DNA of 64,000 bases from Cyanidioschyzon merolae (taxonomy: Eukaryota), in NCBI GenBank assembly GCA_000091205.1, contig AP006493.2. One strand, 5' to 3'. The translations under genes were made by a program, and so were the position numbers. How positions within the stretch are numbered: the first letter of the stretch is position 1; each line of letters opens with the position of its first letter. The notes under the pieces are model-generated. The model did not search any database, was not told the DNA's origin, and saw only the letters and a program-made list of their open reading frames with translations. Positions 11,590-64,000 of this stretch are shown here, piece by piece.

Positions 11590-12030
11590 GAGCTAGGGTG
11601 TAAACTTTAGAAGGTCGAGATGGAGAAAAGCCAGCAAAGCGCTCCAGCAATAGAAAAGCACGGAGGACTGACAGAGCAGCAAATTGCGCAGAGGGCGCGA
11701 GTTCTAATAATACATAAAATAGTCAGTTCCACCAGAGGCGACAAACGCATGAAGTTCGTGAACCGATTCTACAACTCCACCATCAATTTCAGACAGTGTA
11801 TGGCGTTGAAGACGAGGCCCGAGGAGAAGAGGCGGTCTAACTTTGTAGGGCAGTGTCTCAGACTCGAAGTGCGTCCGGACAAACTGAAACTGGTTGTATG
11901 CGGAAGGCCAAAAAAAGACTGGGAGGCCTGTGCACCTGGGTATCAATGTACCCTATATGGTCGTGGGTTATTTTTCGTTCCATTAATCACATTTTACATA
12001 CCTCAGGCTGTACATACTCCGATCTAATCT
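11590..12030 (+). mobile_element. C-terminal fragment of the TnpB/Fanzor-like family (degenerate RuvC-III 'VNRFYNSTINFRQC')
   Basis: The peptide 'DKRMKFVNRFYNSTINFRQCMALKTRPEEKRRSNFVGQCLRLE' aligns to the copy-A C-terminus 'DKKRMEFVNRDFNAAINIRRCAVLGNRPPE'. It also aligns to the 39-kb tail 'LKTRPEELTRSNFMGQNLRL'. A terminal-repeat-like sequence, 'aaagactgggaggcctgtgcacc', follows it. Confidence 0.5.
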
Positions 12031-33202: not shown

Positions 33203-36200
33203 CGGAACATTTAGGTACGTATCCCAGCTGTGATGATATGTACCATGTTTCGTTTCATACATCCATTACAGGAATGGTCTGCCTAACAGCGTAGGGCAAT
33301 TGCAGCATAGCAAGGCTGTATGCGCTGTAGGCAGAAGGAGCTGGCGTCAAGAGGTAGCGATTGCTGTCACGTTTTCTGCAGAAGAGCTATTTCGTCGCTG
33401 TAAAGATGAGAAGCATCATCGTATGCGCTTCGTGCATTCGTATCCGTGTCCGCAGCTCGAGACTGCTCCATTGCAGGTAGCTTGCGGATGCGGGAGAGCA
33501 CCCAAAGAAGGTGTCCAGCTCAGAAGCTCGCGAATTGTCGATTTTGAGACACGCTTCAGCACAGGGCGTGAAACTCGGGACGCAATGTGGCGAAATATCG
33601 AGCAACGAGGAACTCGATGCTGCGTCGAGCTTATATTTGCCGTGCGTACGACATAGGCAACTCGTGGAGATGCTTATATCCGCGGATTCGGGGTAATAAT
33701 GTTTACATCAGAGTCATATCGACATCTCGCGACGCGCACAGTGTCCAGAAACGAGTTGCCAGCGCCAGCTCCGGCACTGCGGTTTGCGCCCGGTGCATTT
33801 CGTGGTTCGAGTCAATGAACCGCGACTCGCATGGCTGGAAATACGCATAATGATTAGTACTTACGTCACATCGAATTCTTTAGCCTCGTCGCGCAATGCA
33901 GTGCTTCCCCATTTCAGTTTAGCAGGCCCATTTCGGAGGCATTCCAGACCGTTCGCGAACCAGTTCGCATAGCAGGCCAAGGCGTACGTGCCTAGAATGG
34001 GCTTCCAGCCACGAAGCCCCTTGCTTGGCAGCAGCGCAGAGCGGCTAACGACTTTGGCTCTGGTGAAGCGCTCTCTCCGAGCCACGCGTTGCTTCGGATG
34101 CTTCTGCCATTGAATACCATCGTGACTAACGCACGAACACAATCTGGAACGGCAGCGGTTGCTTGCTTCCAATAATCGAGCTTGTGTCAGCAAGCCATAA
34201 GGAAGCTCCTGGAAGTGCGGAACGACTTGTAAAGGGAGCTGGTAACCGCTGAAAGCTCGCTGCCCTGGAGAACGTCCAGCTTGACGTTTCAAATCCCGCC
34301 TGCAATCCCTGAGCCAGCGCACCCAGTGAAGGCATTACATGGAAACGTACCGAGAACAACCAAACTGGAGCAGTTTTGTATCCCAGTCGTATGACTACTC
34401 CATGTCACCGCTTATCTTATGGCGCACCCTTGATATATCCAGTAACATCGAAAAATGGAGCAGGAATCTCATTTACCAATCGTCCAGGGAAATCGATCCC
34501 AGTCTTGAGAAAGACAGCACTTGTGCATTGCGAGATCGCTGATCTGCACCATAGCGAATGCCCTGCTCCGAGCAAGAATCAAGTTCTCTCTCTCCTGACA
34601 ACTGCTTTTTTCGCCGTAAGTTTTTACGGGTTTAGCACACCGTTCTCACTGAGTATTCAAGGATTTCCTCGAATCCTCGCTCCACACACAAAGCCGCTGG
34701 AAGCTCCAGAAGCACGAATATTTTCGGCTGTTGATCGAGACGTTGAACTCTGGACGCAGAACATGTTTGCATTCACTGTTGCTGATCGATGCACAAAACA
34801 CCACGCCTTTCACTTTCGATCGCGTCACCATCAGACCTTCGCTCTGCTGACGATAATCTTTTTCGCCAAACCGTCTCCGTTTCACGGACGTCATCTCAAC
34901 CGGTTTCATCATATAACCAGGCTGGAGATACATGAATGTCGCATTGAATCCATCGATGGGAATCGTACACCATTGATGTCTAGACTCGTTGGGTGCCCTC
35001 GTCGAACGAGCTGAAGTGGAGCCCATGCTCGCTGCAGCAAGTCTGCATCCACTGGGTCCCATTAAATGACGTCATTTGTCGGTTACTTCCATTCCGACGC
35101 ATCGAAGGTTATGAGTGCTCGCTTCTTGCCTATGTAGGAACGAGACCGTTGACATCTCTCGCCCAGTGTCATGGCAGCCTATCAGAGATCATCCGCATGA
35201 GCTGTTTGGACGCACACGGACTCTCTGAATGAAGCGTACAACGCATCAGCCTCTGCTCGATGAGATGCTCAGAGCGTCGAGATGGTTCCAGACAACACAG
35301 TTTCGCTTACTGGTACGCTTCCTAGTGCTGATCATGTCCGACACCTAAGGATATCGAACCCTGAAATAATCAGGTCGCGTTGCATAGTGTGTACCGAGCA
35401 TAAGATGTCACGTGAAGTTTTGGTCCAAAATCGAATAGAAATGCAGACAGCTGGTAGATCATTGACCAGAAATTATTGCGACTGGTTGCTTGAAAAGGTG
35501 CGTCAAGGCAAGGGATGCCCGGCGAGAATCTCTCGAGTAGGAAGATATACCGTCCCTCATGGCGTCGTACAGCTCAAAGTTCGAAGATTATCACCCTGAC
35601 GTGTTTTACTACGGAATGCCTGACAACAGCATTGGACTGATGTTTCGGCTCCGTTACTTTTCCCTGGGTGTACTTCATCGTCCGTAAATCGGAACGATTT
35701 TCTCTTCTTTTTCAAGTCGTTTCCTCTCCGTCCCGTTCACCTGGCGGGCTGGCATAAATATGGCTGCTACCCTCTGTATCCGTTTTCCGTCTCGGAGCCG
35801 GAGACAGTGTGTCGAGGGCGCGTTGGAGGCTCATCTCCTCTATGCACGTGTTCACTGTTCCTGAATTATATTTCCGTTACGATCCCTTTTCGAGGATACC
35901 CATGTACCGACGAACACGTTTTCGTTCGCTCCCTCGCATTAGCAAGGAAGCAGCACATCTGTTTTTGGATATTGAACGCAGGAAAAACTTGTACAAGAAC
36001 ATTTTCTCGACTAAGATTGGTGCCACGGACATGAACGACCGTCCATAGGTATGTCAGGGCATCGACAAAAAATTTGGGAAGGAGCGAGACACAAGGAGAC
36101 CCTCTACGACGGAGACGGTGTTGAGCGATCCCGTCTGTTTCATGATTCGTAGGAGCACAGGCAACTGATTCGCCCGCTTCTGCTGAAGTTTTCGGAATGC

Positions 36201-39129: not shown

Positions 39130-39760
39130 GTCTGATTGGTTTGTTTGCGGCCTGTCACCTCAGTTGTGTTCCACCGCAGGAGCGTGTCATCAAAAGCTTG
39201 TTCGCGATTTATTAGAGATGCGTTCGAAGTGCGTTCATTTGAAGAAATGAATAATCCAAGGGATAGGCATGGGTATGCAAGTGGGGATCCTGGAAGTCTG
39301 GTGTCGCCAGTTGCCGGGAAAAACGAAAAAATCCTCTTCTTGCTGAGTATCAAGCGGAGAGGAGCATATGACGAAGAAGAGGACGCAGGGAGGCGATTGG
39401 CGACAGAAGGCGTTTGCCCGACGGAATGATGACGAGACTGCAATGAAAGAGAGGGCGCGAGTTCGAGGAAGCCGTGCAGTGGTGCGTTCAACCAAGGCAA
39501 AGCATGCAAGGAGTTCGTGAACCAAGACTTCAAAGCTGCCTTCATTGTGAGAAATGTGCGATGCTGAAGACGAGACCCGAGGAGCTGACGCGATCGAACT
39601 TTATGGGACAGAATCTCAGGCTCAAAATGTACAAGGAGAACTTGAAGCCGGAGCAGGAACTGCTCAAAAATGGCTGGGGGGCGTCTGTAAATGTGCAAAT
39701 ATATGGACTCTGTGGTTGCGTATCGTTTCATTCCATGGAACGTATTCGCAGATCGTAGCT
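39130..39760 (+). mobile_element. Internally deleted (MITE-like) derivative of the TnpB/Fanzor-like family
   Basis: An NLS-like N-terminal remnant, 'GDPGSLVSPVAGKNEK', is followed by a degenerate RuvC-III segment 'FNQGKACKEFVNQDFKAAFIV' at 39516..39548. The C-terminal tail 'AMLKTRPEELTRSNFMGQNLRLKMYKENLKPEQ' and the terminal motif 'ggggggcgtctgtaaatgtgc' follow. Confidence 0.55.
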
Positions 39761-42700
39761 GCTTCTTTTATTTTGATTGCTTAGGTTTCACGAGTAGCTT
39801 GGGTTTGTGGAACACATGAGTGCCCTTTGCACCCTTATTACTCCAAATGTACAGAGGATCTTCGCATACCTTGGTACACTGCCCTTGGTGTCTCAAGTGC
39901 TCCCTGTAAGATTTACGCAGCTACTGTATTTTGATAGAGTAGGAGTCGAAGTTGGCAGGAATGCACGTTTAGGGTCCACATTCCTCTGTGCACAAGTGCC
40001 CCTACTATCTTCCGTGTCTGTATGTTAAGGTGTCTTTGGTATCAAATGCAAGTGAGAACCGAGGTCACCAAATGTACTACGGCCTGTTGACTGCGCTGTC
40101 GCAAAGGAGCCGATGGATGCTCGCTGGACTCGCCGAACGCAGATAACAAGACACTGTACGTGAGCGGGTAATTGGCACTGGCGGCTTCATGGTCAAGGCG
40201 CGTTTGCTATAGGCAGACGTGGTGTGGTTGCGAAAAGGGGGTCCAGCGTCACCACCAGCACAAGCACCAGCATATCGATAGAAAGAATGTGGGCCACATG
40301 GAGCAGCTTCACTCCGAATGTCACGTTTGTGCCCATGTGTGCTGCATTCTGCCTGTGATGGAGTTCCAATTTGCATCGCTGTACGATGAAAAACATGTCC
40401 TGTGCCTTGATGGAGCTGTCGGCGAACGAGTCCACATGATGCGTCGTCCCGCGAATAAAGGCAATCATGACCAAGCGAAACATTTAAACTTGGTACTTGA
40501 TGCCAGCAGTTCTGCAAGCTGCGCAGAGAAATCGCTTCGAGCGTGGAGTGCAAGTTTTCAGCATCGGTGAGCAAGAAATGCGCTTGCATACTGCTTGTCG
40601 TCATCGCTTCTCGCTGGCGGCAGAACGAGTCTCCTGCATGTCAACCGCGGAGCTTTCAAAGAGAGCGAACATTCCCATGTACAGATTATTTTGAACCGGT
40701 GTCATTGACGTGTAAAATAGTCTCACGATCATTAAATTCAGATCATTTAAAGATAGCGTCCAATCTAGCGACGGGATGAAGCGCATTCCAACCGGTGCAT
40801 CGGGTTTTTGGGGTAGCGTATTCCACTGTACCAGCGGTCCCGTATAGTTAGAAGAGAACCACAAAGACGGCCGGCAGCCTTGTTCACCTGTCGGAGACTG
40901 CGCTGTACGGCACCATGCGGACCTCATGTTTCCCGCTGCTGTCACGTGTCGCGTAATATATAAATATCATGAACAATATCGAGCACCGAAACACCATCAT
41001 CGTCTCCCAATTTTCCTGAACAACTGTTTCCAATGTATAATCAGGCGCTTCCGCTCTTATCGAATACGGTTCATGCTAATCCCGTGCAGTGCTGACAGCG
41101 AGAATACAATTCTCTTAATCGTCGATCAATTTTCTTCCTTGGAATTCTTCAGTGTTTCGGCGCAATGCCAACGCTGACTCATAAAGGATTCCCTGGAAAG
41201 TTCGCTCGAAACAAAGCGGCTGTATGCTACGGGAATGCGAGACTTTTCTGGATGCGTATCAAAAAATTAAAGACTCGGTTCAGAAATCGGTTGCATGCAT
41301 GGAAGCCAGAGGAATCGCACTGTCGGAAGAACCTCACCATCGACTGCGGCACCATCCGACGTTCGGTGAGTTTATCGTGCATTATATCGCGCGTCCGGCT
41401 CTGTCTAACTCTCTTCTACTTGGCCTGTTCAGTCATGCGCCCGAGCTCATCACGCGGTGATGACGTCCTGAGCTCATCGGTTGTGGTCAACGAGAGCCGA
41501 TTCATGCTCTCGAGAAAAGCCCTCGTCGACAGAACAGCAGTGCAGCCCTTGCGCCCACCAGCACGTCCATTCCCATCTGCTACCAGCACCACAAGACGCT
41601 ACGTATCGACCGTCTCTCGTTCTGACTCATGGAACAAGTAGACGAATGAGTCCCTTTGGCATCCTTACAACCCAAGCCGTTGGCAATTCTGGCATGGTTT
41701 CAGGTACTCCTGGGAGGCATCATTCGCTCGAGCCTTTCGACGAGTCATATACGATTTGAATGAAGCATACCAAGCGTCGAAATTTGTTCGATTTGGTGCT
41801 CAGGCATCGAGATGTGTACGAACGCCGTAATTTCACATTTGGGGGGTCTCTCCTGTTGCCCATCATGTCTGGCTCAAGACGGTACCGCCCCGTGCACGAG
41901 GTCAGCAGCTTTATTTGCTTTCCGTTTGAGTCTTTCGCACCAGCCTCTGGATCTAGAGTTGCTTGGGCTGCGGCGGTGGCTTTCAGCAAGCGATCAGCGC
42001 TCACCTGGAAGTCTTTCTCTGCGCCTACCCTGAACAACTGGATATTGGTCTTTTTCCTCGACACAGGCCTAGCGTTCACAAAGTGAACAATGTTTCATAT
42101 GTTGTGCGTCTCTATCGTCCGTGTGGGCTTCTATGCATTTTGCTCCTCGTCGACGAGGAATCATGAACATGTGCCGCTAATGCTCTTCTTGAAATTCTGT
42201 GAATGCGACAAATTTCTCTTAGGGATCACTTGAAGCGCATTGAGGAGGCCAAAGAATACTGTGCAGAAAAATTTTCTCTTGGATAACATATGCCTTGATC
42301 TTACAACTGGAGACCATATTCAATAAGCGCTTGAGGGACTTCGGGCACTCAGATTCGGATAAGGCGTCGGTTTTGCTTTTCTTCTGAACGGCGCTCTGGG
42401 AAAAAGCGAAATGGCGCAGCATGCAATCTGGGTAGGGATCATGGTTCATATAACTTTTGCGTTAAACGTCCGTCGGTCTGAGGCCGAGGGCAGTGCAATG
42501 CGCTTAGACGATCTGAAGCGTCTAGCGCTCTCATTTTGGCACCTCTTTCGAACTCGACGCAATCTCGAGATCTTCCAAAAGGAGTACGTCATTTGTCTCC
42601 GTCGGCACACCCCAGAATTCATTCCATCAGGATGCACCTCCTCGGCATATGAGGTGAGGCTACGAGGGATGCAACGTCCACAGCGTTCGCTTCATGAAGA

Positions 42701-46409: not shown

Positions 46410-46980
46410 ATCGATTTTTTTTTCAGATTTTCTTTTCAGATGACAAACCGTTTAGATTGACCAAGGATCCCAGAATTCGGAATGGATATTCGCCTTCGGG
46501 AAAGCGTCTACTATGAAGCACCTACCTTCATGTGTCATTACTTATACTTCCTCTCGGATATGCTGGTCGTTTCGTATATTCTATCGTGTACCAAGTGCCT
46601 GCCGTGAAGACACGCCGTAACGCGCTTATACCACTGAAGCAGATCCTGCACGGAGACAGAACGGCTTTGGCATACCACTGAGGGCGTCGGCTCGAGGCGT
46701 GATTCATCCGATACGGGGTCGGAGCACATAATCATTCTGGGAGCCTGCGACAGCGCGAAGCGATATACTAGGAGTCCACTGCGACCAGGGCGACGCTCAG
46801 ACGCAGCGTACGCACTCCTCGTTCCAGAATGAATTGCGTTGCGAACGAGTTGCACAGGTCTCGCCACAGCACCTGCCACTGGAGGAAGCATGAAGCACTA
46901 GCTAGCCCCAGACACTCGTCCGGCTCGCGGGACCTTCCGCCTCGAAAGTAAACTTTCGAACATACGGAAACTTTCCCCAT
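46410..46980 (-). repeat. Dispersed repeat 'X' of about 0.6 kb, in minus orientation. Other copies are at 57470..58060 and partly at 63260..63670.
   Basis: It is about 80% identical over roughly 570 nt to 57.47-58.06 kb. It starts at 'ttcgaggcggaaggtcccgcga' and ends in an A-rich stretch. The paired pseudo-ORFs 46538..46891(-) and 57713..57931(+) share '...PTPSVVCQSRSVSVQDLLQWYKR'. Confidence 0.8.
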
Positions 46981-47144
46981 TTCAACGCTTACTATCAAGG
47001 TCATGCGAAACTGTTATCGAGTTGCTAGTTAGCCGTTAGTTTCTGCTCTTTCAGCAATCTGTCGGGACTCACTATGATTCTGGGAGCCTACATGGCGATT
47101 TATGCGTTGCGATACGCTACTGAAACTGTAACAATGCAATTACG

Positions 47145-48134: not shown

Positions 48135-48480
48135 CCAAAGGCAAGTTATGAACATGAAAGTCGAGGATCCTGGAGGACCGGTGTCGCCGGGTTCGAAGAA
48201 AACGAAAAACTACTCTTCACGCCGACCATCGAGCGAAGGGAGGCAAGTAGCACAGACGAGAGAAGATAGACGGGAAAACATATTTACCCTACTGGGCGGT
48301 GACAAGACTTTAGTGGCACAGAGTGCACGAGTTCTTGCAATCTTCGCGGTGGTTTATTCAACCAAGGCAATGCGCACAAAGAGTGCGTGGACCGAGACTT
48401 CAACGCTGCCATCTATATCAGACGATATGCAGTGCTGAGGACGACATGCGCGGAGCTTATTGGATCCAGCCCCAGCTGAG
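48135..48480 (+). mobile_element. Internally deleted (MITE-like) derivative of the TnpB/Fanzor-like family that retains an intact RuvC-III motif
   Basis: An NLS-like region, 'KVEDPGGPVSPGSKKTKNYSSRR', is followed after a frameshift by 'FNQGNAHKECVDRDFNAAIYIRRYAVL' at 48391..48420. Confidence 0.6.
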
Positions 48481-50730: not shown

Positions 50731-52038
50731 CTAACAGGCGCGCTGTCTTGGTGCTTCCGATGCCGCCTTGAATGCCCGGTATTCTGGTACGAGATGCCGC
50801 AGTTGCACCAGGATACTGCTCAGCAGGCCAATGTCAATGATGTGATTCAGCCACCGCGTAAGGCTAGAATATAAACCGATATCGCGGATGAGGAAGCCAC
50901 GACCTATGGAGCGCATGATGCTTTCAGCAACACCCTCAGGGCTGGCACCTGTAAACCGATCCAGGAAACGCAGAATGGCCAGCTTTGGCTGGCCTGCATA
51001 GAGATTTGTCCGCGTATAGCTTGGATGGACGACTAACACATCGACACCAAGGTCACGCACCTCCACCGCCAGCGACTGTGCAAACGAGGTCAACGCCGCT
51101 TTCTCGGCGCCATACAAGGTCGCGAATGGCGTTGGCAGAAAGAAACTCGAAGAGCTCGTGAAAACAAGCAGTCGTCTTCGAGAGGTTCGCGACGTCGCAC
51201 CGGTACGTTCCAAGTCACCGAAACGATGCTGGTTTTGGGCCCAACGTTCCAGCACATAATGCGTCAGCCGCAACGCCGCCGTGACGTTGCACTCCCAGTT
51301 GCGCATCTGCTCCGCGAGGCCTCGCTGCCAATAGAACGACATTAGAAGGTAACCAGCATTGGAAAACACCAAACGCAATGTGTCTGCAGCAAAGAGATCA
51401 GCTGTAGCTTCCTTCACATCCGAGAGGTAGCCGGGTATCACACCTACTTCTTTCTCCAGTGTGTTGTTCGCTGGGGTAGCGTCCGAGAGATCCGTCGCCA
51501 CTACGCGGAAACTTCGCTCCGGAAACTCAGTGTGCAGCTGCTCCACGGCTTTTGGTAAAAGCGCATCGTTTCGAGCAACCAGAACCACGTTGATGCCCTG
51601 CCTAGCCAACTCTCGAACAATGCATAACCCTATTCCAGAAGAAGCCCCTGTCACAAGCGCCCAGGGCTCTTTTGCTACGTCGACGGGGTTCCGCGGCTCT
51701 TCGGCTGCAGCGGTGCCCGCGCCACCCCTCTTTACTGAGTTCGCTCGCTTCCTCCTGGACTCCTGGGTGCTCGCAGGTTGCGAGGAACGTCGTCCGATCG
51801 TACGATCGACTGCCTCGGCTACCGACTCTGATCCAGAAGCACGCGCTGACTCGAGGTCCGCGAAGTAGCGTCGGCACAGGTTGCACCGTGGGGCCCAGCT
51901 CATGAACAGCAACGGGCCAAAATAAGAGACAATCAGGCACGTCAGCGAGATGCTCGCCAGCAAGCCATAAATATGCCAAGCATTGATAGCCAACCTCCAG
52001 ACAATAGGAAACTGAGGAAACATCTTGTGGAATGGCAC
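50731..52038 (-). CDS. Short-chain dehydrogenase/reductase with an N-terminal transmembrane segment (3-ketoacyl reductase-like)
   Basis: The SDR motifs are the Rossmann 'WALVTGASSGIGLCIV' segment, 'NAG', and the catalytic 'YGAEKAAL' (YxxxK). The N-terminus is hydrophobic. Confidence 0.75.
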   Translation of the reverse strand: MPFHKMFPQFPIVWRLAINAWHIYGLLASISLTCLIVSYFGPLLFMSWAPRCNLCRRYFADLESARASGSESVAEAVDRTIGRRSSQPASTQESRRKRANSVKRGGAGTAAAEEPRNPVDVAKEPWALVTGASSGIGLCIVRELARQGINVVLVARNDALLPKAVEQLHTEFPERSFRVVATDLSDATPANNTLEKEVGVIPGYLSDVKEATADLFAADTLRLVFSNAGYLLMSFYWQRGLAEQMRNWECNVTAALRLTHYVLERWAQNQHRFGDLERTGATSRTSRRRLLVFTSSSSFFLPTPFATLYGAEKAALTSFAQSLAVEVRDLGVDVLVVHPSYTRTNLYAGQPKLAILRFLDRFTGASPEGVAESIMRSIGRGFLIRDIGLYSSLTRWLNHIIDIGLLSSILVQLRHLVPEYRAFKAASEAPRQRAC

Positions 52039-52184: not shown

Positions 52185-54341
52185 ATGCTGCTGCTTGTTG
52201 TAGAGGTTGTGTATGGAAAGGGGCGCTCCCTACTTCAACAGGCACAGTGCATGCACCCGCACCAGAGCAGCGAAGCGGACGAGTCCTCAACAGGCGTACA
52301 AAACGAGTCTGCACCGCGCTGGGCGAATACTCGTTTGACAAAGGGCCCCAGCGAAGCGGCGCCTGAAGCACCGGTAAGCGACCTTAGCCCTGAATCATCG
52401 ACCGCGCTCCCAGCGGTTGGCGCTGCTAGTGAACGCGGAGAAGTGTGTGAGGCCTGGCGAAAGCAGCCTGCAACAGGTACGGAGTCAGTTGACCCGCCGG
52501 CCCGAGCGAATGACTTTCGCAAGCCAAAAGGGTATGCGCGCCGGGAACCGGAGGACTGCCCGAAATGGCTCGATTTCAGGGCGGGAAACCCAGAGATTCC
52601 ACTGGACACCGTTACTGGACGCATTCATTTGCTTGCAGACCGGCAGAGCGCTCGTCGTGTTCAAGAGCCCCAGCTGGAGAGCAGTGCTCCCGCGGCGAGC
52701 ACCACAGCGGCTGTGCGTAAACCCACGGAATCGAGCCTGGGGGACCACATTGCGCGCTCCATACTGGAGCATAAACAATCCACTTTGAACGAAGACGAGG
52801 ACCAAACGAAGAGAGCCGAAGTCGAAGTGGGTACACCCAAGACGCTGGCGGAGGCATCCAGCGACTCGGTGAAGGGTTCACATGCCACTGGAGAGGTGCC
52901 GGCTGCTCACTGGAAATCGTCTCCTAGCTCGCTAACTTGCTCGGACTTTGCCCGACGGCATGCAAAAGCTTCCATGATTTTCGATCAAACGACATTGCTC
53001 TGTATGCTTGGAGTTCCCGGTTATTTGAGCACTGCCGATCTGGCCCAGTTTGTAGCACCATTCAGGAGTAGAATTCGCCGAATGCGAATTGTTTGGGACT
53101 TGTCCTACTCGAATTCGTACGCGGTTTTGCTGCGCTTCCTGAGCCCAGACGATGCTGTCCTCTTTCGAATGGAGTACGATGGGCGAGCGTTTTCAGAGGC
53201 TCTCGCTCCCGAGCGATGTCGGGTGCTCCCTGTGGAGCGCGTGGTCTATCGCTGCACATCAAAACAGAGTTCCCGTTTGGTCGCCTCGTTGGCGCTTCCT
53301 AGCGAGCAGGACGGGGACGAAATCGTGGAATATGACGAGTCAACGTCGAGTGACGCGGATATCGGACATCTGGAAGAGTGGCCTACCTGCCCAGTGTGTC
53401 TTGATCGGCTCGATCTCGAGTCTATACTGGTGGGCCTCTGCAATCACGCCCTGCACACGGCCTGTCTGGCACGTTGGGGCGATCCATCGTGCCCCGTGTG
53501 CCGCTTCGTGTCGGAGACGCTGAACCCACAAAAAACCTCTTGTCAGGTCTGTAACGCTCAGACGCAGCTCTGGATCTGTCTCGTTTGTGGGCATGTGGGA
53601 TGCGGGCGCTATGTGCAACACCATGCGCTTGCGCATTTTCGAGACACGAACCATGTCTTCGCCATGGAACTGCAAAGTGGGCGCGTCTGGGACTATGGTA
53701 GCGACTCGTACGTTCACCGCGTGCTGCTGAACGAAGTCGATGGGAAGCATGCAGTGCTCGAGATGCGTGCGTCGACCGGCAGCCGCGCTGTCGCAGCGAG
53801 CGGTGTTCCTTATCACAGCGATGGAGGTGCGAATGCACCGGCAAGCTCATCCCAGCGAAGCGCTCCGGAGATAGACGAGGAACGCACGCAGCTTTTTGCT
53901 GCGACGATTGCTAGCAAAGTTGACTCACTTTCACAGGAGTATGAAATGCTTCTGCTTTCGCAGCTGGAGTCGCAGCGGCTGTGGTACGAGGCAAAGGCGA
54001 CAGAGTTGGAGCGAGCTTGGAGCAAACGCGTTCAGGAACTCGAGCAACGCCTTGAGCGACTCAGCAAACCGAAGTGCTCGCGAGACGCAGCCACGGGTGA
54101 TGGAGCAGGTAATGAGTTTGATGCCAAGCTTTTACGGGAGCTGAACGAGCGCTTGCTTCGTGACGCTGCTGCTTGGCGCGAGCAAGTCGAGCGTCTCAAG
54201 AGGGAGCGCGACGAGCTTGCCGAGCAAGTGAATGACCTCCTGCAGCACATTGAGGCGAGCGCGAAGCTATCAGCCCGAGGAAACAATTCCACGAGCATTC
54301 GGCTAGAGGCGCTTCGCAACAGGCGCATCACAAAGCCCTAG
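52185..54341 (+). CDS. BRAP2: BRCA1-associated protein BRAP2/IMP-like E3 ligase (RING-H2, ZnF-UBP, coiled coil). The start is uncertain.
   Basis: The RING-H2 finger reads 'CPVCLDRLD...CNHALHTACLARWGDPSCPVCRF'. The ZnF-UBP region reads 'CQVCNAQTQLWICLVCGHVGCGRYVQHHALAHFRDTNHVFAMEL'. A C-terminal coiled coil follows. Confidence 0.85.
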   Translation: MLLLVVEVVYGKGRSLLQQAQCMHPHQSSEADESSTGVQNESAPRWANTRLTKGPSEAAPEAPVSDLSPESSTALPAVGAASERGEVCEAWRKQPATGTESVDPPARANDFRKPKGYARREPEDCPKWLDFRAGNPEIPLDTVTGRIHLLADRQSARRVQEPQLESSAPAASTTAAVRKPTESSLGDHIARSILEHKQSTLNEDEDQTKRAEVEVGTPKTLAEASSDSVKGSHATGEVPAAHWKSSPSSLTCSDFARRHAKASMIFDQTTLLCMLGVPGYLSTADLAQFVAPFRSRIRRMRIVWDLSYSNSYAVLLRFLSPDDAVLFRMEYDGRAFSEALAPERCRVLPVERVVYRCTSKQSSRLVASLALPSEQDGDEIVEYDESTSSDADIGHLEEWPTCPVCLDRLDLESILVGLCNHALHTACLARWGDPSCPVCRFVSETLNPQKTSCQVCNAQTQLWICLVCGHVGCGRYVQHHALAHFRDTNHVFAMELQSGRVWDYGSDSYVHRVLLNEVDGKHAVLEMRASTGSRAVAASGVPYHSDGGANAPASSSQRSAPEIDEERTQLFAATIASKVDSLSQEYEMLLLSQLESQRLWYEAKATELERAWSKRVQELEQRLERLSKPKCSRDAATGDGAGNEFDAKLLRELNERLLRDAAAWREQVERLKRERDELAEQVNDLLQHIEASAKLSARGNNSTSIRLEALRNRRITKP

Positions 54342-54849: not shown

Positions 54850-57175
54850 GGAATGTTTGCAGCGGTATCGCGAGCTTTCACATGCCGACACCGAACACTT
54901 TCCAAAAGTCGAACGATGCCGACCGTGTACAGCAGTGGCGGACGGTGCGCCCTAGACGACGTCTCCATCAGACGTGTAGACGCCTCCCCGTCTTTTTGGA
55001 CCGGCCACCCACTACTGTCTCCAACTTTTTCTCATATTGTTTGACCTTGAGAGGTTGTCCAAAAAAGTTCCTTCTTGTTCACTCTGGAGGTCTGTTCCCC
55101 AGCACCGCACATCTCCGGATATTGATAGCGGCATTAAAATCTCGATTCACAAACTCCATCCGTTTCTTGTCATTACTAGTTGTACTTACTAGTGCAAGTA
55201 GCCCTCGCACTTTTGCCATCCTTTGCATTTGCTTTTCCGTCTGCGGTCCGTACTTTGCTATTTCCTCAGGACTCCTCTGGCACTTTTCCATCTCAACTCT
55301 CTGAAGTATACTCCCCAGCTCATGGAGTGTATACGATGTTCGAAACTCATATACAGGTATCGTAATGAAACGCCGTGCACACTCGTTGTACGTTCTCGTC
55401 GTTGGAGCTCGAGTAGTCCCTTTTTGGGTCTTCCATAGCCCTGCCCCATACGCTACTACGAGACTCTGATTCTCGTCCTTTTTGAAGGCACTCAACTGAT
55501 TGAAAATGTCGGCAAACGCCCGCTGCCTCCCACCATATAGATTCATACGCAAACGAGACCACCGGGGCTTGGTATATTCCTCCCACAGTGCATCCCAATG
55601 AGCAACACGAACTTCCATGAATTTCCGAAAAGCTTCAAAGTCCGCTCTTTGGCTCGACACCTCGCTCAAAGCTTCCAGGTGATCCTTCATCCCTCCATTC
55701 CATGTCTCGATTCTCGATTGTATCTCGATCTCGAGCACCTCAAAAGACGCTTGTCTTTCTGGCTTTAGTTGCCGTCTGTGCCATCTTACCCACGCTTCGA
55801 TGCTGCGATGGTTATGATATTCGTATTCCCAGCGTCCGCGCCAACCATAAAGTTGTTAGCCTCCACCTCCTGCGTCGCAGGACCCGCCTTTCTCTCATCT
55901 TCATGGCTCACCAAGGGCGGGACTCGACGATCTTTCTTCAATAGCCGTTAGTGTACACCCAAGGCTACACCATCGGTTTCGATCATCCCAGTGGACAACT
56001 TTGCTTGCTCGCTCTCAGACGTTTGAAATTGAAGATGTTCTTCCAGTACGTCTGCCGGTATTCGCCGGCGAAGTCCTCCCTACTAGCATCGAACTGGGGA
56101 CTGATCTCCTTCATGATGCCGTGAAGGATTCTGGAGTCGGTACTCACAAAATGTGACTTGATGTTGCACATTGGAACCGCGTTGAGGTGCTTTCTCATTA
56201 GGAAAGCTTTCCGTCTCTCCCACTCTTCATTTTTTCCTCACTCTGCTTCATCTCTGCCTTGCGTTCGAGCTCTGGTCCAGAAACACGAAATAGCGCAGGA
56301 CGAGGCGATAGTATTTTTCTTTGTCTTTTTTCAACTCTGATATCTGTCTGCTGGATTCGCCAGCCCCAAGACTGCACCGTGCTCATGTATAACCGAACGG
56401 ATGAGGGAATTCTCATTTGTGCTCCTGCTTGACGGCTTCTTATCGACGAATTCGACTTCATCTTCATGCTGGCGATCTTTCGCTTTTCCATTGATAATCG
56501 CCCATATTCCTTTGCGAGAGATGCCCGGGTACAGCGCAAACACGGCACGTATTATGAGACGTTCGAGTTTCACGATTACGTGATTCTTCAGGTTCGTGAT
56601 GTACTTCGTCGCCCCTTATACGTAAACATTCGAATCACCTCTGTATGGAGTACTGTTGAAGCTGTGGAAGGGACATTTTTTGTGGAGGTCATGCACTCGC
56701 TCCTTCCTCATCGATGCTTTTCTTGTGTCAGCCATCAGGTGACGAATAAAGCTCTTATCGAAAAACTCGTCCGGAATCTCGACCGTTTCCATGTGCATCA
56801 CGTCGCGATACATCTCGCTCGCCAAATGCATCAGTCCTGACGACGCCTTGACGATACTCTTGGAGTACCAGTCGACACGGTTTCTGATAGCTTCTTGCTA
56901 CTTGAACGGATCCATGATATGTACAAGAAGACAGGCTTTCACCACCATCTCGTTGCACAGTCGTCTTTCTTGCCGCCTTCGACCTAGGGCCTTCCCCTTT
57001 CGGTCCTTCTTCTCTCTTTTTTCTTCTGGATTCCGCATTGTCTTTTGCTTTTTTTTTTCTGGCAGCCGGCGACCCTGGACCTCCAGGATCGTCAACTCGC
57101 TTTTTCATAGCTTTTTTTTTCATCTTTTTTGTGAAAAAGAACGCTCTTTGAACCCTCCTGTTATATGCCACGACA
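54850..57175 (-). pseudogene. Copy A: the longest copy of the TnpB/Fanzor-like (OMEGA RuvC nuclease) element. Its coding region is decayed into several frames.
   Basis: The best fragment, 55079..55738(-), carries the RuvC-II-adjacent block '...ITIPVYEFRTSYTLHELGS...' and the RuvC-III block 'RMEFVNRDFNAAINIRRC'. The lysine-rich N-terminal region 'KKMKKKAMKKRVDDPGGPGSPAARKKKAKD' lies at 56755..57171(-). The middle segments at 56331..56573(-) and 55983..56198(-) match copy B at the peptide level. The 3' terminus at 54960-54990 carries the hairpin AGACG-cctccc-CGTCT. Confidence 0.65.
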
Positions 57176-57469
57176 AAACGCTCGAATATTTTTAGTCGAG
57201 GGTTGAAACGGCATCGGACTGGAAGCTATGATTTGTTACGACTTCCACACAAATACAGCTTGCCTGTTAGAACAGCAAGAAAACGTGTCGTCACGGTCGC
57301 GTTTCTCTTCAAAGGCGACATATGCGTCGTGTCTCGTAAGTGCCATACTTGGAGATGCACGTATCGAGCGCGCCATACAGGAAAAAGGACAGTGACTTAC
57401 GATTTACAAGAAACGATGTAAAATTTTTTCCCGCTCTACGATAAGCGTTTAAGGGGAAACAGATCGCCG

Positions 57470-58060
57470 TATTATCGGAAGCTTATGTTCGAGGCGGAAG
57501 GTCCCGCGACCCGGTCGAGTCTACCGGGCTAAAGCTCGGTATGCCTCTAAAGTGGCCGCTGCCGCTGCTGCTGCAAGACCTGCGTAGCTCGTTCGCAACG
57601 CATTTTATCCTGAGACTATGCACAGGATGCTGCGTTGGGCCTCGCCCTGGTCGCAGTGGAACCCTAGTACAGCACTTCGCGCTGGCGCAGGTAGTAGGTC
57701 TTTCTGCGCACTTTGCATGTTCCCAGAATGACAAATAGCCCTGATTCCGTTTCAAGTGAATCATTCCTCGAGCGGACGCCCTTAGTGGTATGGCAAAGCC
57801 GTTCTGTCTCTGTACAGCACCTGCTTGAGCGGTATAAGCGCTACAGCGGGTGCTCACAACAGGCTCGGCGCTCGATAGAACATACGAAACGACCAATATA
57901 TCAGAGAGGTAGTATGGATAATGGGACTTGAGGACAGGTGCACTATGATCGAGATATCCCCGGAAGCCATCGTGCGTTCCGAATTCTGGGATGCATGGTC
58001 AATGCAAACGTTCTTTCATCAAAAAGAAAAAAACGCTCCGGAGGCGGACTCGTCATCGAG
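57470..58060 (+). repeat. Repeat 'X', plus orientation, immediately upstream of the copy-A N-terminus
   Basis: See 46410..46980. The order and opposite orientation relative to the Fanzor-like ORF match the 46-48 kb locus. Confidence 0.8.
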
Positions 58061-58410
58061 ACGCGCATCGCTCTGGATCGAATCTCCGGAAGGCGCTTCT
58101 GGGCGATCGCGAAAGCCCTCAAGTGCATCTTTGTATTCTCAACGGATAGCATGATTTATTCGGGGCGCTCAGTCTCGAGCGTTCCCTCTGACTTAAAGCA
58201 ATACCTTCGTGGATCCGACAGCTGTGTTATCAAAGAGCACTGTACCTAGTTTTGGCGAGGCCTATAGTGCTGGAGAACAAAACGATCACGGGTTTGTAGC
58301 GATCTCGGCACCAGTGCTGGAAACAACCCTGCACTGGAGCTCGGGCGATCTAAAACCCGTAGTCGGACTTTTTCGAAGATCTGTCTGGCAAGGAAGCAAA
58401 TCGTGGAAAT

Positions 58411-60599: not shown

Positions 60600-62850
60600 G
60601 ACCGAAACGTCTCGTAAGACCACCGCACCCGACGACAACAAACATCTTTCGAAACAAAAACGTTGCTGCCGGCAGTAGACAGTACTGGCGAGAAACTCGC
60701 CCTAGACAAGAAGTCGCCAACTGACGTGCAGACGCCTCCCCGTCTTTTCCGACCGGCCACCTACTGTGGGTACCATTTGTTCTTATATAGTTCCAGTTTA
60801 AGAGGTTGTCCAACAATGGACTCTCGTGTCACCGCTGGGAGTCTTTTGTCTATTCCCGCACATCTCCGTAGATTGATTGCAGCGTTAAAGACTCGGTTCG
60901 CGAACTCCATACGTTTCTTGCCGATGGTAGACGTACTTACTAATGCAAGTAGTCCACGAGCTTCTTCCCTCCTTTCCATTTCCTCTCCCGTCAGCTGTCC
61001 CTTACTTTTTTATATCATGACGACTCCGCGGGCACTTTTCAATCTCCATCTTCTGAAGAGTACATCCCAACTCGTGGTGTGTATACGATGTTCGGAACTC
61101 ACCCACAGGTACCGTAGCGAGACCCAGTGCGCACTCCTTGTCCATTCCTGCCGTTGGAGCTGGTGTAGTCCCTTTTTTCGGAGCCCAGCCCCCTACATCA
61201 TATGTAACAACGAGCCTCTGACTTGATCGTCTTTCAAGCCGTTCAACCCATTGAAAAAGCTCGCGAATGCGTGATGCTTACCACGGCACAGATTCATACG
61301 CAAACGTGCCCAGCGGTGCTTTGTATACTCGCCCTACAGCGCCACGGAATGAGCAACCCCAACTTCCAAAAATTTCAGAAAAGCTTGAATGTCCGCTCAT
61401 CGGCTCGTCACCACGCTCAAAGCCTCCAGGTGATCCTTTATTCCTACATTCCACGTAACGATCTTCTTCCTTGCATTCGTTATACCGGATTCTCGATAGT
61501 ATCTCTCTCTCTCGAAAACCTCAGCAGAAGCATATGTTTGTGGCGTAAGGTGCAGTCAGTGCAATCTTCCCTTCGCTTGTGAACAGCGATGGTTATGAGA
61601 TTCGTGCTCCAGGGACTAAGGCCGACGCCAAAGTGGTTTTCATGGGGCTTATACGTTCCATAGCCCGTCAACCTGTGTTCGTTCTTCGGCAAGGGCCGTA
61701 AAGAAGACGGGATAGGACGAGCTGCCTTCAACCGCTGATGGTGTACACATATGTGCGCCACATCGAGATCGATTGTTCCAGTGAATAACCTTTTTTTGGC
61801 CGGTTCGGGACACTTGAAATCGAAGATATTCTTCTCGTAGGCGTCCCGATCTTCACCGGAGACCTATTTGTTGATTACATCGAGCTATGGATAGATCTCT
61901 TTCCTGAAGATGCAAAAGGACTATGGGGTCGATATTCACAAAATGTGACTTGAACGCGCATAACCGACCGACATTGAAGCGCATCTGGAGAAGACTTCAA
62001 TGTCGTTTCTCGCACTCGTCTTTTTTTCCACACTCAGCTCCATGCCGACCCTGCGATCGAGGTCTCGGACCGAAAACATGAAGCAGGGCAGGTTGAGAGA
62101 GTAACAACTCTATCCGTCGTTTCTCATATCCGAGAGTTTTCTCTTGGGTTGACATGACCCAAGACCGAACGATGTTTTAGAATAGTCGCGCGAATTACAG
62201 AAGCATCATTCATTATCCTGCGTGATGTCCTCTTGTCGACGAGTCTGATCTCCTGTTCATGCTGGCGATCGTTCTTCATACCGTCGATGATTGCAAGCAT
62301 CCCTTCGCGAAATAGGCCATGGTACAGCACAAAGGCGACGCGTATCATGAAACAATCGAGGTTTGCCATTTTATGGTTCCTCACATTCATAAGGCACCTC
62401 TTTGCCCTGTATTCGTAAATGTCTGCGTCACCCCTGTGTTCAGCACCGAAGACGAGGAATTTGGCGTAATTTTTGAGGAAGGCATGCACTCGCTCACTTA
62501 TCCCCGATGTTTTCCCATTAAAAACAATCAGGTAGTTGATGAAAGTCTTTTGGAAAAATTTTTCCGGAAACATCACTTTCGCGATAAGCGTTACGTCCCG
62601 ATGCAGGTCGCTGTCCAAATGCCAACGTCCTAAAGAGAAGATACAAACATACCTGGCGTACGAACCGACACGGTTTCTGATAGCGTCTCGCAACAATCAG
62701 TCGTACGGATCATTGATATGTTGGAGAAGATAAGATTCCACCACCATCTTGTCGTACAGAAGTCACAATTTCGGCCTTCGATGTAAGGCCCTCCCATGTT
62801 GCTTCTTCTTCTGTTCTTGACCCTCTTCGCTAAGCACTACGTCTCGTTTC
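60600..62850 (-). pseudogene. Copy B: second long copy of the TnpB/Fanzor-like element. It is more decayed than copy A.
   Basis: The ORF 60761..60979(-) reads 'LLALVSTSTIGKKRMEFANRVFNAAINLRRC...GQPLKLELYKNK'. The ORF 62124..62696(-) matches copy A at '...GMLAIIDGMKNDRQHEQE...'. The 3' end at 60721-60745 contains 'gacgtgcagacgcctccccgtctttt'. Confidence 0.6.
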
Positions 62851-63259
62851 TTTCTGACATCCGGCAGCACCGGCCACCCCAAACCCACAACCTCCAAATA
62901 CATAAGTCTAATTTTTGTTTTGGGAGAAAAACTCATTGGACGCTTCTGCTTTGAACGGCGAAAATAAGTTGAATACCCTTACTTAATGATTGAAACGCCA
63001 TAGGAGCCAAAACTATACTTTGCTACGATTCGATCAGAAATACAAGTGGCCCCGATAGAGCAGTCGCTCCAGAAGAGGTCATTACCGCGTTTCTATTGAT
63101 CGGCGAGATGCACGTAGCGTGACGTGACGGCCAGATTTCGCGATGCGTTACCAGGACGCACGATATAGAAAATGCCAAAAAATTGACAATATCCAAAAAC
63201 GGGGTACCAAGTACTAACGCCACCTACTGTAGACGTTAAAAGGAAGAAGTCTTTGCGTA

Positions 63260-63670
63260 TGGTCAAGCAGTGACATATAGGCGGAGGGTCGGCAAGCAGC
63301 GAGACTCTACCAACCGCTAATACCGGTTGACCATACAGTTGCGAGTGAAGTGACACACCCTAGCATCCCATCCGAAAAAGAACAGATTCTGGAACAAGGA
63401 GCGGATATATTGCGTCTAAGCGTGACCTAGATTGCGGTAGACTAATGGTATAGCGCTTTACGCTATCGCAGGCAAAAGGTCTGCAAGAACAGCTTGAAGG
63501 CTCCAAAGAAAATAAATTTCCCTGATCCCATGTTGCATGAACCAAGACCCTTCCAAAGCGCTCAGTGGTAGGCCAGAGCTGATCTGTTTGAAGAGTGCAA
63601 CAGCAACGAAGAAAGAGAGGCTACGGCGGGTGCTCAGAGCAGGTAGACGGCGCAGGAGAGAAAGTCTGAT
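63260..63670 (+). repeat. Partial repeat 'X' upstream of the copy-B N-terminus
   Basis: The sequence 'ggcggagggtcggcaagcagcgagactctacc' matches X 'ggcggaaggtcccgcgacccggtcgagtctacc'. The sequence '...gctacggcgggtgctcagagcaggtagacgg' matches X '...gctacagcgggtgctcacaacaggctcgg'. Confidence 0.5.
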
Positions 63671-64000
63671 ACGATCAGTACAGCCGAGATAAAGTAAATG
63701 CGACGGAAGGGAAAGAAACTGGTCAGCGGGATGGACGATTCTCCGAAACCAGTATCGATCCAGGAATTTCGCCGGTCTATCCAGTGGGCAAGTTCCACCA
63801 GACCAATAAAAGCATAGCGCCGGAGGTAATTCCCTAATGGCTCTAATATGCTAAATGAAAAAAATGACATATGCAGAGGAGCTCAGACGGTACCGCCGAA
63901 AAAAAAATCCCTAACGAGTCCGGAATGGTAGACGTCAAAATCACAGACGCTTTCGCGCTGGGATCATCGCGTTAATGGTGGGACTGGGGGGAATGGGGGG

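Follow-up and report, generated by a model that had tools for sequence, protein, structure and literature searches.

A decayed Fanzor1 copy of the CMe-1A element in Cyanidioschyzon merolae: relocated glutamate and missing zinc finger as probable family traits

A 219-aa open stretch on the minus strand (55079..55738) of the 64,000-nucleotide stretch of Cyanidioschyzon merolae DNA analysed here (the window) had been read, from its letters alone, as part of a TnpB-type gene with a degenerate zinc finger and a possibly substituted RuvC-II glutamate. Does this locus have a rearranged catalytic site as in Fanzor lineages, does it descend like every other copy from an already inactive element, or has just this one copy decayed? 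The strings quoted in the sequence-only reading are real, since SLVVAYGAG (55439-55465, minus strand, residues 92-100), FRTSYTLHELGS, EKCQRSPEE (55262-55288, minus strand) and FVNRDFNAAINI all occur in the translation of this open reading frame. We conclude with considerable confidence that this locus belongs to a dead copy of the element CMe-1A, called copy A in the following, of which it is the best-preserved fragment, and that both apparent defects go back to the ancestor of the family and are not decay.

A decayed copy of CMe-1A

CMe-1A is a Fanzor1 element of C. merolae that Bao and Jurka reported in 2013 (Mobile DNA, Repbase; PMC3627910). Its consensus is about 3.1-3.2 kb long, it is present in about 150 old copies with about 80% identity to the consensus, it has no TIRs, and its 5′ 635 bp are equal to TE-N2_CMe (PMC3627910). 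The same features are found here. Copy A extends on the minus strand over about 3.13 kb (54889..58021), its limits being the positions between which 80 metagenome copies give coverage; the 3′ end was set from alignments and is uncertain by about 5 nt. TIRs are absent, and according to the DNA alignment copy A has its 5′ module (57390..58021, minus strand) in common with the separate repeat TE-N2_CMe, the 5′ 630 nt of the published CMe-1A aligning to 58020-57390 at 78%. At least seven CMe-1A copies lie within the window and at least 344 confirmed stretches were found in metagenome contigs. The genes neighbouring the element are eukaryotic, and with 229 homologues and E-values down to 1e-132 the match is far above chance. 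The neighbouring genes and the repeat family point to Cyanidioschyzon or a close relative as the host; a GC content of 54%, few introns and a neighbour related to plastids had suggested Nannochloropsis, which was dropped on the match to the published CMe-1A. The copy in the window is a decayed member of this element and nothing essential differs; the element and its relocated glutamate were already known.

The family consensus was built from metagenome copies, using 44 copies for the DNA and 120 fragments for the protein. An uninterrupted open reading frame of 763 codons is restored by the 44-copy DNA consensus. The published CMe-1 protein (734 aa) reads ...GADPGNTN...RLVVAYGAGRW...VDEFRTSYTHHELGCTLQRVEMEKCQRSPE...KVRGLLALVSTT...FVNRDFNAAINI, and through the RuvC/TNB region its motif string is identical to that of the metagenome-copy consensus. 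The two are 86% identical over 630 aa and agree in the C-terminal 140 aa except at a few positions; the metagenome-copy consensus has an extra 25-aa repeat unit. A fully intact CMe-1 ORF was found in none of 85 loci, the best one running to 752 codons and containing a premature stop. A second word-indexed protein search with a diverse alignment brought up mostly CMe-1 fragments again and also supplied the near-intact copy of 752 aa that served for the model.

Compared with the 763-codon consensus the coding region of copy A (54950..57108, minus strand) is degenerate, with 7 frameshifting indels, 7 in-frame stops and 154 differing codons among the 716 that are comparable. Copy A is a pseudogene and has no function of its own; in the annotation the stretch is to be labelled CMe-1A/Fanzor1 pseudogene. 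The claim that it is the best-preserved copy holds only for the 219-aa stretch, which corresponds to consensus codons ~512-720 and is the longest open part of copy A. This stretch spans the RuvC helices, the RuvC-II strand, the alternative glutamate, the former zinc-finger region of the TNB domain and RuvC-III.

That the gene is of the TnpB type was borne out, and hhalign, fold and motifs place it in Fanzor1. A search with the family profile against PDB sequences gave nothing significant, a single-sequence search found SpuFz1 only marginally (E 0.083), and there was no significant sequence match to a solved TnpB. When the AF2 model of P0274 (pLDDT 84, pTM 0.81) was compared with the PDB by Foldseek, the seven best matches were all Fanzor1 proteins (SpuFz1, PpFz1 and GtFz1; E ~1e-16, TM 0.73), whereas Cas12 structures matched far more weakly. 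At the level of the model the whole protein shows a fold of the Fanzor1 type (WED, REC, RuvC, TNB). With SpuFz1 (PDB 8GKH, 9CEU) the overall fold is common (Foldseek E 3e-16, TM 0.73) at an identity of about 15%; the elements differ in that TIRs of 30-33 bp and TA duplications occur in SpuFz1 and CMe-1A has no TIRs. We picture CMe-1A as a ~3.1-kb TIR-less multicopy element of the red alga Cyanidioschyzon or a close relative whose single gene encodes a Fanzor1 protein, a eukaryotic TnpB-type RNA-guided RuvC endonuclease.

The catalytic residues

In canonical prokaryotic TnpB the RuvC-II glutamate lies about 50 residues upstream of the C4 zinc finger and RuvC-I has the form D-[hydrophobic]-G; CMe-1 has instead a glycine for the glutamate, DPG in RuvC-I and no zinc finger. 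The hallmarks of Fanzors are DPG in RuvC-I together with an alternative glutamate that precedes the first zinc-finger position by six residues (PMC10711439), and at the canonical RuvC-II place they carry G or P (PMC10530073). This alternative glutamate is essential in ApmFNuc (PMC10530073) and sits in the loop after β5, ahead of the TNB domain (PMC11423790); the catalytic triad of SpuFz1 has been described as well (PMC10432273, PMC11423790). What had been taken for a substituted RuvC-II is this standard Fanzor arrangement.

The conservation of the motifs was counted in diverse relatives (up to 79 sequences). In RuvC-I, where the family consensus is GADPGNTN, the relatives have D in 79/79, P in 75/79 and G in 79/79. 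Copy A reads GADAGNTN (55819-55842, minus strand, in another frame than the 219-aa ORF); the proline is changed to alanine and the catalytic aspartate (codon 55834-55836) is retained. The canonical place of the RuvC-II glutamate at the end of strand β4 corresponds to the glycine of VVAYG (55445..55447, minus strand, codon derived from the ORF frame). It had been noticed correctly that this position is non-acidic, for it is glycine in copy A, in 34 of 37 CMe-1 copies and in all 78 relatives; the distance of SLVVAYGAG from TS, which had been given as about 60 aa, is actually about 36-42 residues. The alternative glutamate is present in each of the 79 relatives and is intact in copy A (VYEFRTS, family consensus VDEFRTS; codon 55346..55348, minus strand). 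In V-D-E-F-R-T-S-Y-T-H there are six residues from the glutamate to the position equivalent to C1. For RuvC-III, R-D-x-N, we counted R in 77, D in 77 and N in 76 relatives, the aspartate being found in 77/77. The motif of copy A, NRDFNAAINI / FVNRDFNAAINI (55118-55153, minus strand), has an intact catalytic aspartate (codon 55139..55141), and all three D-E-D residues are still encoded in this copy. Numbered by the consensus, they are D460, E632 and D701.

An hhalign comparison with SpuFz1 (probability 97.9%, E 3e-13) paired D, E and D with D383, E541 and D606. Like CMe-1, SpuFz1 has a glycine at the canonical glutamate place, the alternative glutamate in D-E-[YF]-[KR]-T-S, N-R-D in RuvC-III and [HR]GLL in the second hairpin; RuvC-I is DPN in SpuFz1 and DPG in CMe-1. 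In the AF2 model the strand with the canonical glutamate place comprises residues 617-623, the alternative glutamate lies in the loop following β5 before the TNB domain, and the RuvC-III aspartate starts the helix 724-737. The suggested rearrangement of the catalytic site in the manner of Fanzor lineages stood up, given the DPG motif of the family and an intact alternative glutamate aligned to E541. Catalysis would use the alternative glutamate of DEFRTS along with the aspartates of RuvC-I (DPG) and RuvC-III (NRD). A conserved helix with WEEY, which precedes the glycine by about 42 residues, was considered as the site of the relocated glutamate and rejected, since the alternative glutamate is downstream, in DEFRTS (PMC10711439, PMC11423790; hhalign with E541).

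Copy A could also have lost by local decay what its ancestor still had, namely a normal CxxC...CxxC and a canonical RuvC-II glutamate. The copy is heavily mutated (154/716 codons off the consensus), and three changes in the range of the motifs, D->Y, H->L and C->S, are private to it, the family consensus being VDEFRTSYTHHELGC. However, the 120-fragment, the 44-copy and the published CMe-1 consensuses are all without the cysteines and the canonical glutamate, and glycine stands at the RuvC-II place in 34/37 copies and 78/78 distant relatives, so that we regard local decay alone as practically out of the question. The comparison of copies which the sequence-only reading had suggested was run and revealed neither CxxC...CxxC nor a canonical glutamate in the other copies. 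The odd motifs of copy A are no evidence for a new catalytic arrangement or for an inactivation of the whole family.

The missing zinc finger

The C4 zinc finger has been termed strictly conserved in Fanzor and TnpB, and CMe-1 as an exception was not remarked on (PMC3627910). The first former zinc-finger hairpin of copy A, VYEFRTSYTLHELGS, reads TSYTLHELGS (55310..55339, minus strand) with leucine at C1, where the consensus has H, and a C2 without cysteine; the second, KVRGLLALVST (55181..55213, minus strand), has leucine at C3 and lacks C4. No CxxC is found between the TS motif and RD in copy A. A degenerate zinc finger had been claimed for this copy, and the motif is indeed missing; it did not decay in copy A, being absent family-wide instead. 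CxxC...CxxC is absent from the 44-copy consensus, from the 120-fragment protein consensus and from the published CMe-1 protein. Among the 104 nearest cluster representatives none has two CxxC motifs and 103 have no CxxC at all. The diverse relatives have no cysteine at C1, C2 or C4, and C3 is cysteine in 57/79. Pfam PF07282 matched only below the threshold (12.8-23.7 bits, cut-off 26.3). At E<=1e-3 there are 1320 cluster representatives; the cluster look-ups gave a taxon name, Tetrabaena socialis, for a single member of the clade. An intact clade protein from Tetrabaena is PNH08370.1. A large clade is fixed for the absence of the zinc finger, which is not a degeneration of copy A. By the zinc-finger motif definition of 2013 these proteins fall outside Fanzor1; the later criteria, based on RuvC and on the fold, include them.

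The zinc finger of SpuFz1 is CCCC (CPRC...C-x4-C), and CMe-1 has at these places H, no counterpart, L and none, its C2 position falling within a SpuFz1-specific insertion. In the CMe-1 family and the large surrounding clade the TNB domain has lost the ligands of its C4 zinc ribbon, and its two hairpins would persist as a zinc-free fold.

Alternatively, a zinc site might have been rebuilt in the CMe-1 lineage from His639, His640, Cys644 and Cys654 (THHELGC-x9-C in the consensus). These four residues lie within the region of the first hairpin and are kept among the copies (H 32/37, H 37/37, C 35/37 and C 29/37), yet this conservation is not above that of neighbouring residues. The relatives, moreover, vary at 639 (H/Y/F), 640 (H/W/Y) and 644 (T/S) and have a gap at 654 in 56/79, and the nearest outside relative (P0122) reads THAETGQ without a cysteine. 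A rebuilt site is in our opinion quite improbable, and we retain the reading of a TNB domain that has lost its zinc ligands.

Precedents for both traits of CMe-1 exist in prokaryotes, in TnpB2/TvTnpB (PMC10530073), in the RIIr clades and in the zinc-finger-less RIIIr-4 (PMC10691335). The canonical glutamate can shift by about 45 residues in prokaryotic TnpB clades (PMC10530073, PMC10691335), and whole TnpB branches without the C4 zinc finger are regarded as probably active (PMC10691335). These clades are bacterial or archaeal, borne by IS200/605 or IS607 and much smaller, and they have no direct relationship to the CMe-1 clade; in RIIIr-4 the rearrangement concerns RuvC-III and not RuvC-II. 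Because the loss is already documented in prokaryotic TnpB branches (PMC10691335), the point about the zinc finger is incremental. For the clade as a whole the loss appears to have passed without comment in the literature searched.

Relatives of the Fanzor1 type in giant viruses (IMG/VR GVMAG contigs, L086/L087) share IIAYGAAKF, VDEYNTT and RGLRWC...NRDMNAAKNI. Unlike in CMe-1, their zinc-finger positions still carry cysteines (TTKICSCC ... WCSSTNC), and for this reason these relatives look like a zinc-binding sister state ancestral to the zinc-finger-less clade.

Selection on the family and the element ends

Variants found in a single copy have a dN/dS of 1.08 (range ~1.0-1.1), compared with 0.26 for variants present in at least six copies. 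For shared variants the ratio is 0.26-0.32 overall and 0.10-0.15 in the RuvC/TNB half; in codons 627-715, which comprise the alternative glutamate, the former zinc finger and RuvC-III, it is 0.10, compared with 1.04 in singletons (Fisher p 3e-14). The low ratio of the shared variants and the invariant D-E-D in 79/79 relatives show that the zinc-finger-less protein was under purifying selection, and the earlier alternative of an inactive ancestor of all copies is rejected.

A non-functional founder, whose copies were multiplied passively by the machinery of another element and whose odd motifs are frozen damage, would account for the lack of an encoded transposase, of TIRs and of an intact ORF in the 85 loci, and Bao and Jurka class CMe-1A as "non-autonomous", in quotation marks (PMC3627910). 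But the older variants of the master lineage are mostly synonymous (dN/dS 0.26-0.32) and only the private ones are neutral, the consensus is an uninterrupted 763-codon ORF, and relatives of at most 50% identity agree in the motif states and keep D-E-D without exception. We consider such a founder very improbable.

Purifying selection means that the CMe-1 protein mattered; it does not by itself mean DNA cleavage. From the sequences we infer that the ancestral CMe-1 protein was an active omega-RNA-guided nuclease. The zinc-finger-less clade might instead have been selected without cutting DNA in vivo, as an RNA-guided binder, as a transposition cofactor or in dependence on a partner protein that would replace the zinc ribbon. 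In the Fanzor1 structures that have been solved, the TNB domain contacts stem-loop 1 of the omega-RNA and shapes the substrate cleft (PMC11423790), so a remodelling of this domain could change the function; some catalytically altered derivatives of TnpB have other roles (PMC10691335), and CrFNuc-1 did not cleave in vitro (PMC10530073). On the other side, D-E-D and the motifs DPG, DEFRT[ST] and NRDxNAAxNI are invariant, which would be unexpected were catalysis dispensable, zinc-finger-less prokaryotic TnpB clades are thought to be probably active (PMC10691335), and GtFz1 still cuts despite a more drastic change of its active site (PMC11423790). A protein that does not cut therefore seems unlikely to us.

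A further-reaching view, to which we give an even chance as a whole, takes CMe-1 as a member of a large Fanzor1 clade (1,300 or more clusters at 50% identity) that occurs in red algae, in green algae and in numerous eukaryote-like metagenomic contigs without a taxonomic assignment. In this view the clade has dispensed with the zinc finger and is still an active RNA-guided endonuclease, the TNB segment without zinc is under stronger constraint than any other part of the protein, and the cysteine-bearing giant-virus relatives mark the transition. Motif-based searches have the C4 zinc finger built in, for example in the regular expression of PMC10711439, and since a selectively maintained Fanzor1 clade does without it, searches for CxxC...CxxC or PF07282 miss its proteins. 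If members of the clade are active, the TNB fold can work without zinc and zinc coordination is not required for the function of Fanzor1; the clade would then be a naturally metal-independent TNB scaffold.

The ancestral nuclease would cut a target set by the 3′ flank and possibly by the T-rich 5′ flank, which is a TAM candidate only. At the 3′ end of CMe-1A the non-coding segment 54894..54952 (minus strand) is a candidate for the right end and the 3′ part of the omega-RNA. It contains a GC hairpin (54937-54952) and a terminal hairpin of about 10 bp (54894-54918). An RNA structure at this end has no statistical support (three invariant pairs in RNAalifold, MFE z-score -0.18), and Rfam gave no match there, the sole match being a sub-threshold snoRNA-like one at the other end. 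Two variants of the terminal hairpin pair in different registers, which is not column-wise covariation. The 5′ module of the element also occurs on its own, as a solo copy of TE-N2_CMe at 46439-47045.

A broken copy of the CMe-1A element

The 219-aa open reading frame at 55079..55738 on the minus strand lies in copy A, a decayed Fanzor1 copy of about 3.1 kb (about 54889-58021). Its translation contains all the strings that the sequence-only reading had quoted and reads, always on the minus strand, SLVVAYGAG (55439-55465), FRTSYTLHELGS with its TSYTLHELGS part at 55310-55339, EKCQRSPEE (55262-55288), KVRGLLALVST (55181-55213) and FVNRDFNAAINI (55118-55153). The distance from SLVVAYGAG to the TS motif is about 36-42 residues and not about 60 as had been stated. 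Three-frame translation places a RuvC-I-like motif, NNFMVGADAGNTNIIT (55819-55842, minus strand), in another frame just upstream of this reading frame, and further homologous pieces interrupted by stop codons lie upstream of the motif; the gene is therefore broken, and the 219-aa frame is only its longest open stretch. Copy A is dead: relative to the consensus open reading frame it carries seven frameshifting indels and seven stops in frame, and 154 of 716 comparable codons encode a different amino acid.

A word-indexed protein search found 229 homologues, without exception short JGI and ENA metagenome fragments, and scanning the cluster representatives in full with HMMER gave 1,320 proteins at E<=1e-3, including many of 600-700 aa. 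With 80 related loci taken from metagenome contigs the repeat could be delimited to about 58,044..54,890. A majority consensus of 44 copies recovered an uninterrupted reading frame of 763 codons, which is 86% identical to the CMe-1 protein published for the red alga Cyanidioschyzon merolae over 630 comparable residues and agrees with it in all but a few of the last 140 C-terminal residues. At the DNA level, the published CMe-1A consensus aligns over its first 630 nt with the window at 58020->57390 (78% identity). CMe-1A has been described as an element with a consensus of ~3.17 kb, without TIRs, with undetermined target duplications, with ~150 old copies of ~80% identity to the consensus and with a 5′ module of 635 bp in common with TE-N2_CMe (Bao and Jurka 2013, PMC3627910), and this description fits the repeat found here. 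We therefore conclude that the element belongs to the already published Fanzor1 family CMe-1A and is itself not new. The best-preserved copy found (L085 3001-5259; JGI 3300050362, contig Ga0504780_000149) is open over 752 codons, plus upstream sequence, with a disturbed start region and one premature stop (Q to stop) that precedes the consensus end by ~35 codons. Precomputed Pfam data assign PF26935 (DUF8286) weakly to the N-terminal halves of numerous CMe-1 fragments (P0274-P0340), whereas hmmscan on P0274 gave no such match at E<=0.1.

The catalytic site and the missing zinc finger

The RuvC-I signature of Fanzor proteins is D-P-G (PMC10711439) and their RuvC-II motif is reorganised, with Gly or Pro at the canonical glutamate position and an alternative glutamate that precedes the first zinc-finger cysteine by six residues (PMC10711439, PMC10530073). 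Cleavage by ApmFNuc is abolished by E467A (PMC10530073), and in SpuFz1 the metal-binding triad consists of D383, E541 and D606, the glutamate being located on the loop that joins strand beta-5 to the TNB domain (PMC10432273, PMC11423790). The CMe-1 consensus has the motifs GADPGNTN, RLVVAYGAG, IPVDEFRTSYTH and FVNRDFNAAINI. In a profile-profile comparison of a 57-sequence clade profile with SpuFz1 (sequence from the 2013 supplement; probability 97.9%, E 3e-13, 329 columns) the CMe-1 motifs were paired with VIDPNK (D383), LDEYKTS (E541) and NRDTLSTCNM (D606).

We also modelled the structure of P0274, a near-intact CMe-1 copy of 752 aa, with AlphaFold (pLDDT 84, pTM 0.81; low confidence only in the disordered residues 380-469, with pLDDT below 50). 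Strand 478-485 has the RuvC-I aspartate at its end and strand 617-623 the glycine; the alternative glutamate directly follows strand 650-654, and the second aspartate is located where helix 724-737 starts. Solved Fanzor1 structures have been described with this same topology. The top PDB matches of a Foldseek search were all Fanzor1 proteins (SpuFz1 with E 3e-16 and TM 0.73, then PpFz1 and GtFz1); Cas12 proteins matched far more weakly. The pairing with SpuFz1 together with the topology of the model shows that SLVVAYGAG is an ordinary Fanzor RuvC-II strand. The predicted catalytic glutamate is not a residue of this strand but the E of VYEFRTS, whose codon is still present in copy A (55346-55348, minus strand) along with those of both catalytic-site aspartates. 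Thus, of the two explanations offered by the sequence-only reading, a rearranged catalytic site holds, the relocation being an already known Fanzor feature.

No CxxC is found between the TS and RD motifs in the 219-aa translation of copy A, and the zinc-finger cysteines are missing from the CMe-1 consensus as well, which contains neither an intact CxxC...CxxC nor a canonical glutamate. Of the four zinc ligands of the SpuFz1 TNB domain (C1 to C4), C1 corresponds to His in CMe-1, C2, which sits in an insertion specific to SpuFz1, has no counterpart, C3 corresponds to Leu and C4 to nothing. When 78 full-length relatives (50%-identity cluster representatives) were aligned with the consensus, position C1 was H, Y or F, C2 was D or T, C3 was Cys in 57 sequences (motif RGLLWC) and C4 was absent, and the RuvC-I Asp, the Gly, the alternative Glu and the RuvC-III R-D-x-N were invariant or nearly so. 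Two CxxC occur in none of the 104 nearest representatives with both flanking motifs, and 103 of them lack CxxC altogether; the Pfam TNB/zinc-ribbon model gave sub-threshold scores only. The absence of the zinc finger is therefore a trait of the whole clade, for which "degenerate" was the wrong word.

Only one Cys of CMe-1 falls in the zinc-finger columns of the 2013 alignment, and no other sequence of that data set has the RGLLW motif; the C4 finger was nevertheless termed strictly conserved (PMC3627910). Loss of the zinc finger has a precedent in prokaryotic TnpB branches (PMC10691335). Relatives from giant-virus MAGs (IMG/VR; L086 2959-4749 and L087) have the clade motifs IIAYGAAKF and RGLRWC but, unlike CMe-1, retain cysteines at the zinc-finger positions (TTKICSCC ... 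WCSSTNC), so that the loss looks derived within this Fanzor1 subgroup, as judged from these sequences. L088 resembles a deletion variant without the first hairpin of this region. In the accessible papers searched we found no statement on a clade-wide absence of the zinc finger in Fanzor1, and a large, selectively maintained clade without it is the only, modestly new, point.

Selection on the family

Single-nucleotide variants of 37 non-redundant copies were binned by the number of copies sharing them. Private variants, which arose after insertion, have a dN/dS of 1.08 and reflect neutral decay. The ratio is 0.52 for variants common to 3-5 copies and 0.26 for those common to at least six. For variants in at least four copies it is 0.15 between RuvC-I and RuvC-II and 0.10 in the segment with the alternative glutamate, the former zinc finger and RuvC-III, as compared with 1.04 for singletons in that segment (Fisher p 3e-14). 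Since orthologous copies sampled twice push shared variants towards neutrality, the test is conservative. These low ratios show that the protein without zinc finger was under purifying selection while the family diversified, and selection is strongest in just the part that lost the zinc ligands. Both local decay only and descent from an already inactive founder, the other explanation put forward earlier, are thereby rejected. Bao and Jurka gave a related informal argument from surviving intact reading frames (PMC3627910). From the invariant triad we infer that the ancestral protein was probably a nuclease; purifying selection is no proof of this activity.

Just upstream of the RuvC-I strand there is a 75-bp (25-aa) tandem repeat with ~1 to 6 units between copies (e.g., L085 4149-4449), whose unit duplicates QDNDFVVGAD, the lead-in of the catalytic strand. 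The model of P0274 is disordered here (residues 380-469), shared variants are little constrained (dN/dS 0.81), and copy A has an 87-bp deletion in this region at about 55910.

Element ends and the surrounding window

If it worked like the Fanzor1 enzymes characterised so far, the ancestral CMe-1 protein would bind a putative omega-RNA, transcribed at the element's 3′ end, that overlaps the end of the reading frame and extends into the flank, and it would cut matching DNA with the D460/E632/D701 site (consensus numbering). The last 60-75 nt of the element contain two hairpins (54889-54952, minus strand; 3′ ends of the metagenome loci L005-L083), a GC-rich one (GGCG...CGCC) and a terminal one of 10 bp. 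The latter occurs in two subfamily variants, CGTCGTTCGA-CTT-TCGAACGGCG and AACGTTTTTC-TTTT-GAAAGACGTT, with pairing registers offset by 3 nt. Beyond it ~10-18 nt are conserved (...TTTGGTG) before the flanks diverge. The hairpins showed neither covariation nor a thermodynamic signal, and nothing in Rfam matched them.

A T-rich tract of the form tttt[c/t]ttt[c/t] directly adjoins the element start CGATGACAAAACGTTT on its 5′ side in nearly all full-length copies (e.g., 58022-58035, in minus-strand sense, and L013-L075) and in the solo TE-N2 copy. This tract may reflect a preference for certain target sites or TAMs, or it may belong to the element without having been recognised as such; it is reminiscent of Chlamydomonas Helitron2 elements carrying Fanzor1, for which an "insert after TTTT" rule has been reported. 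Across the 5′ boundary of the element, the Rfam model of the C/D-box snoRNA snR75 matches below threshold (57983-58073, minus strand; 25.5 bits, gathering score 40, E 0.019), probably by chance.

Besides copy A, six or more CMe-1/Fanzor1 relics that differ in age lie in the same 64 kb, at 60705-63767, 34721-35368 and 41170-41832 on the minus strand and at 11590-11916, 39490-39647 and 48360-48458 on the plus strand. One relic, copy B, has a DNA identity of 68% with copy A, and the remaining ones show 25-55% protein identity. This density is far above chance for ~150 copies in a genome of roughly 16 Mb, and the window is thus a repeat-rich region. The 5′ 630 nt of CMe-1A also match 46439-47045 (plus strand, 79%), a solo TE-N2_CMe-like repeat with no Fanzor reading frame attached, and 63386-63767 (minus strand, 68%), probably the 5′ module of copy B.

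The host genes next to copy A encode an intronless BRAP2-type protein of 718 aa (BRAP2, RING, zf-UBP; 52185-54341, plus strand) and a CYP38/PsbQ-like peptidyl-prolyl isomerase (50731-52038, minus strand), the latter indicating a plastid-bearing host. The same locus occurs in several JGI metagenomes, where the BRAP2-type RING/UBP protein, a short-chain dehydrogenase and the CYP38/PsbQ-like lumenal isomerase adjoin, and these neighbours point to a photosynthetic, intron-poor eukaryote.
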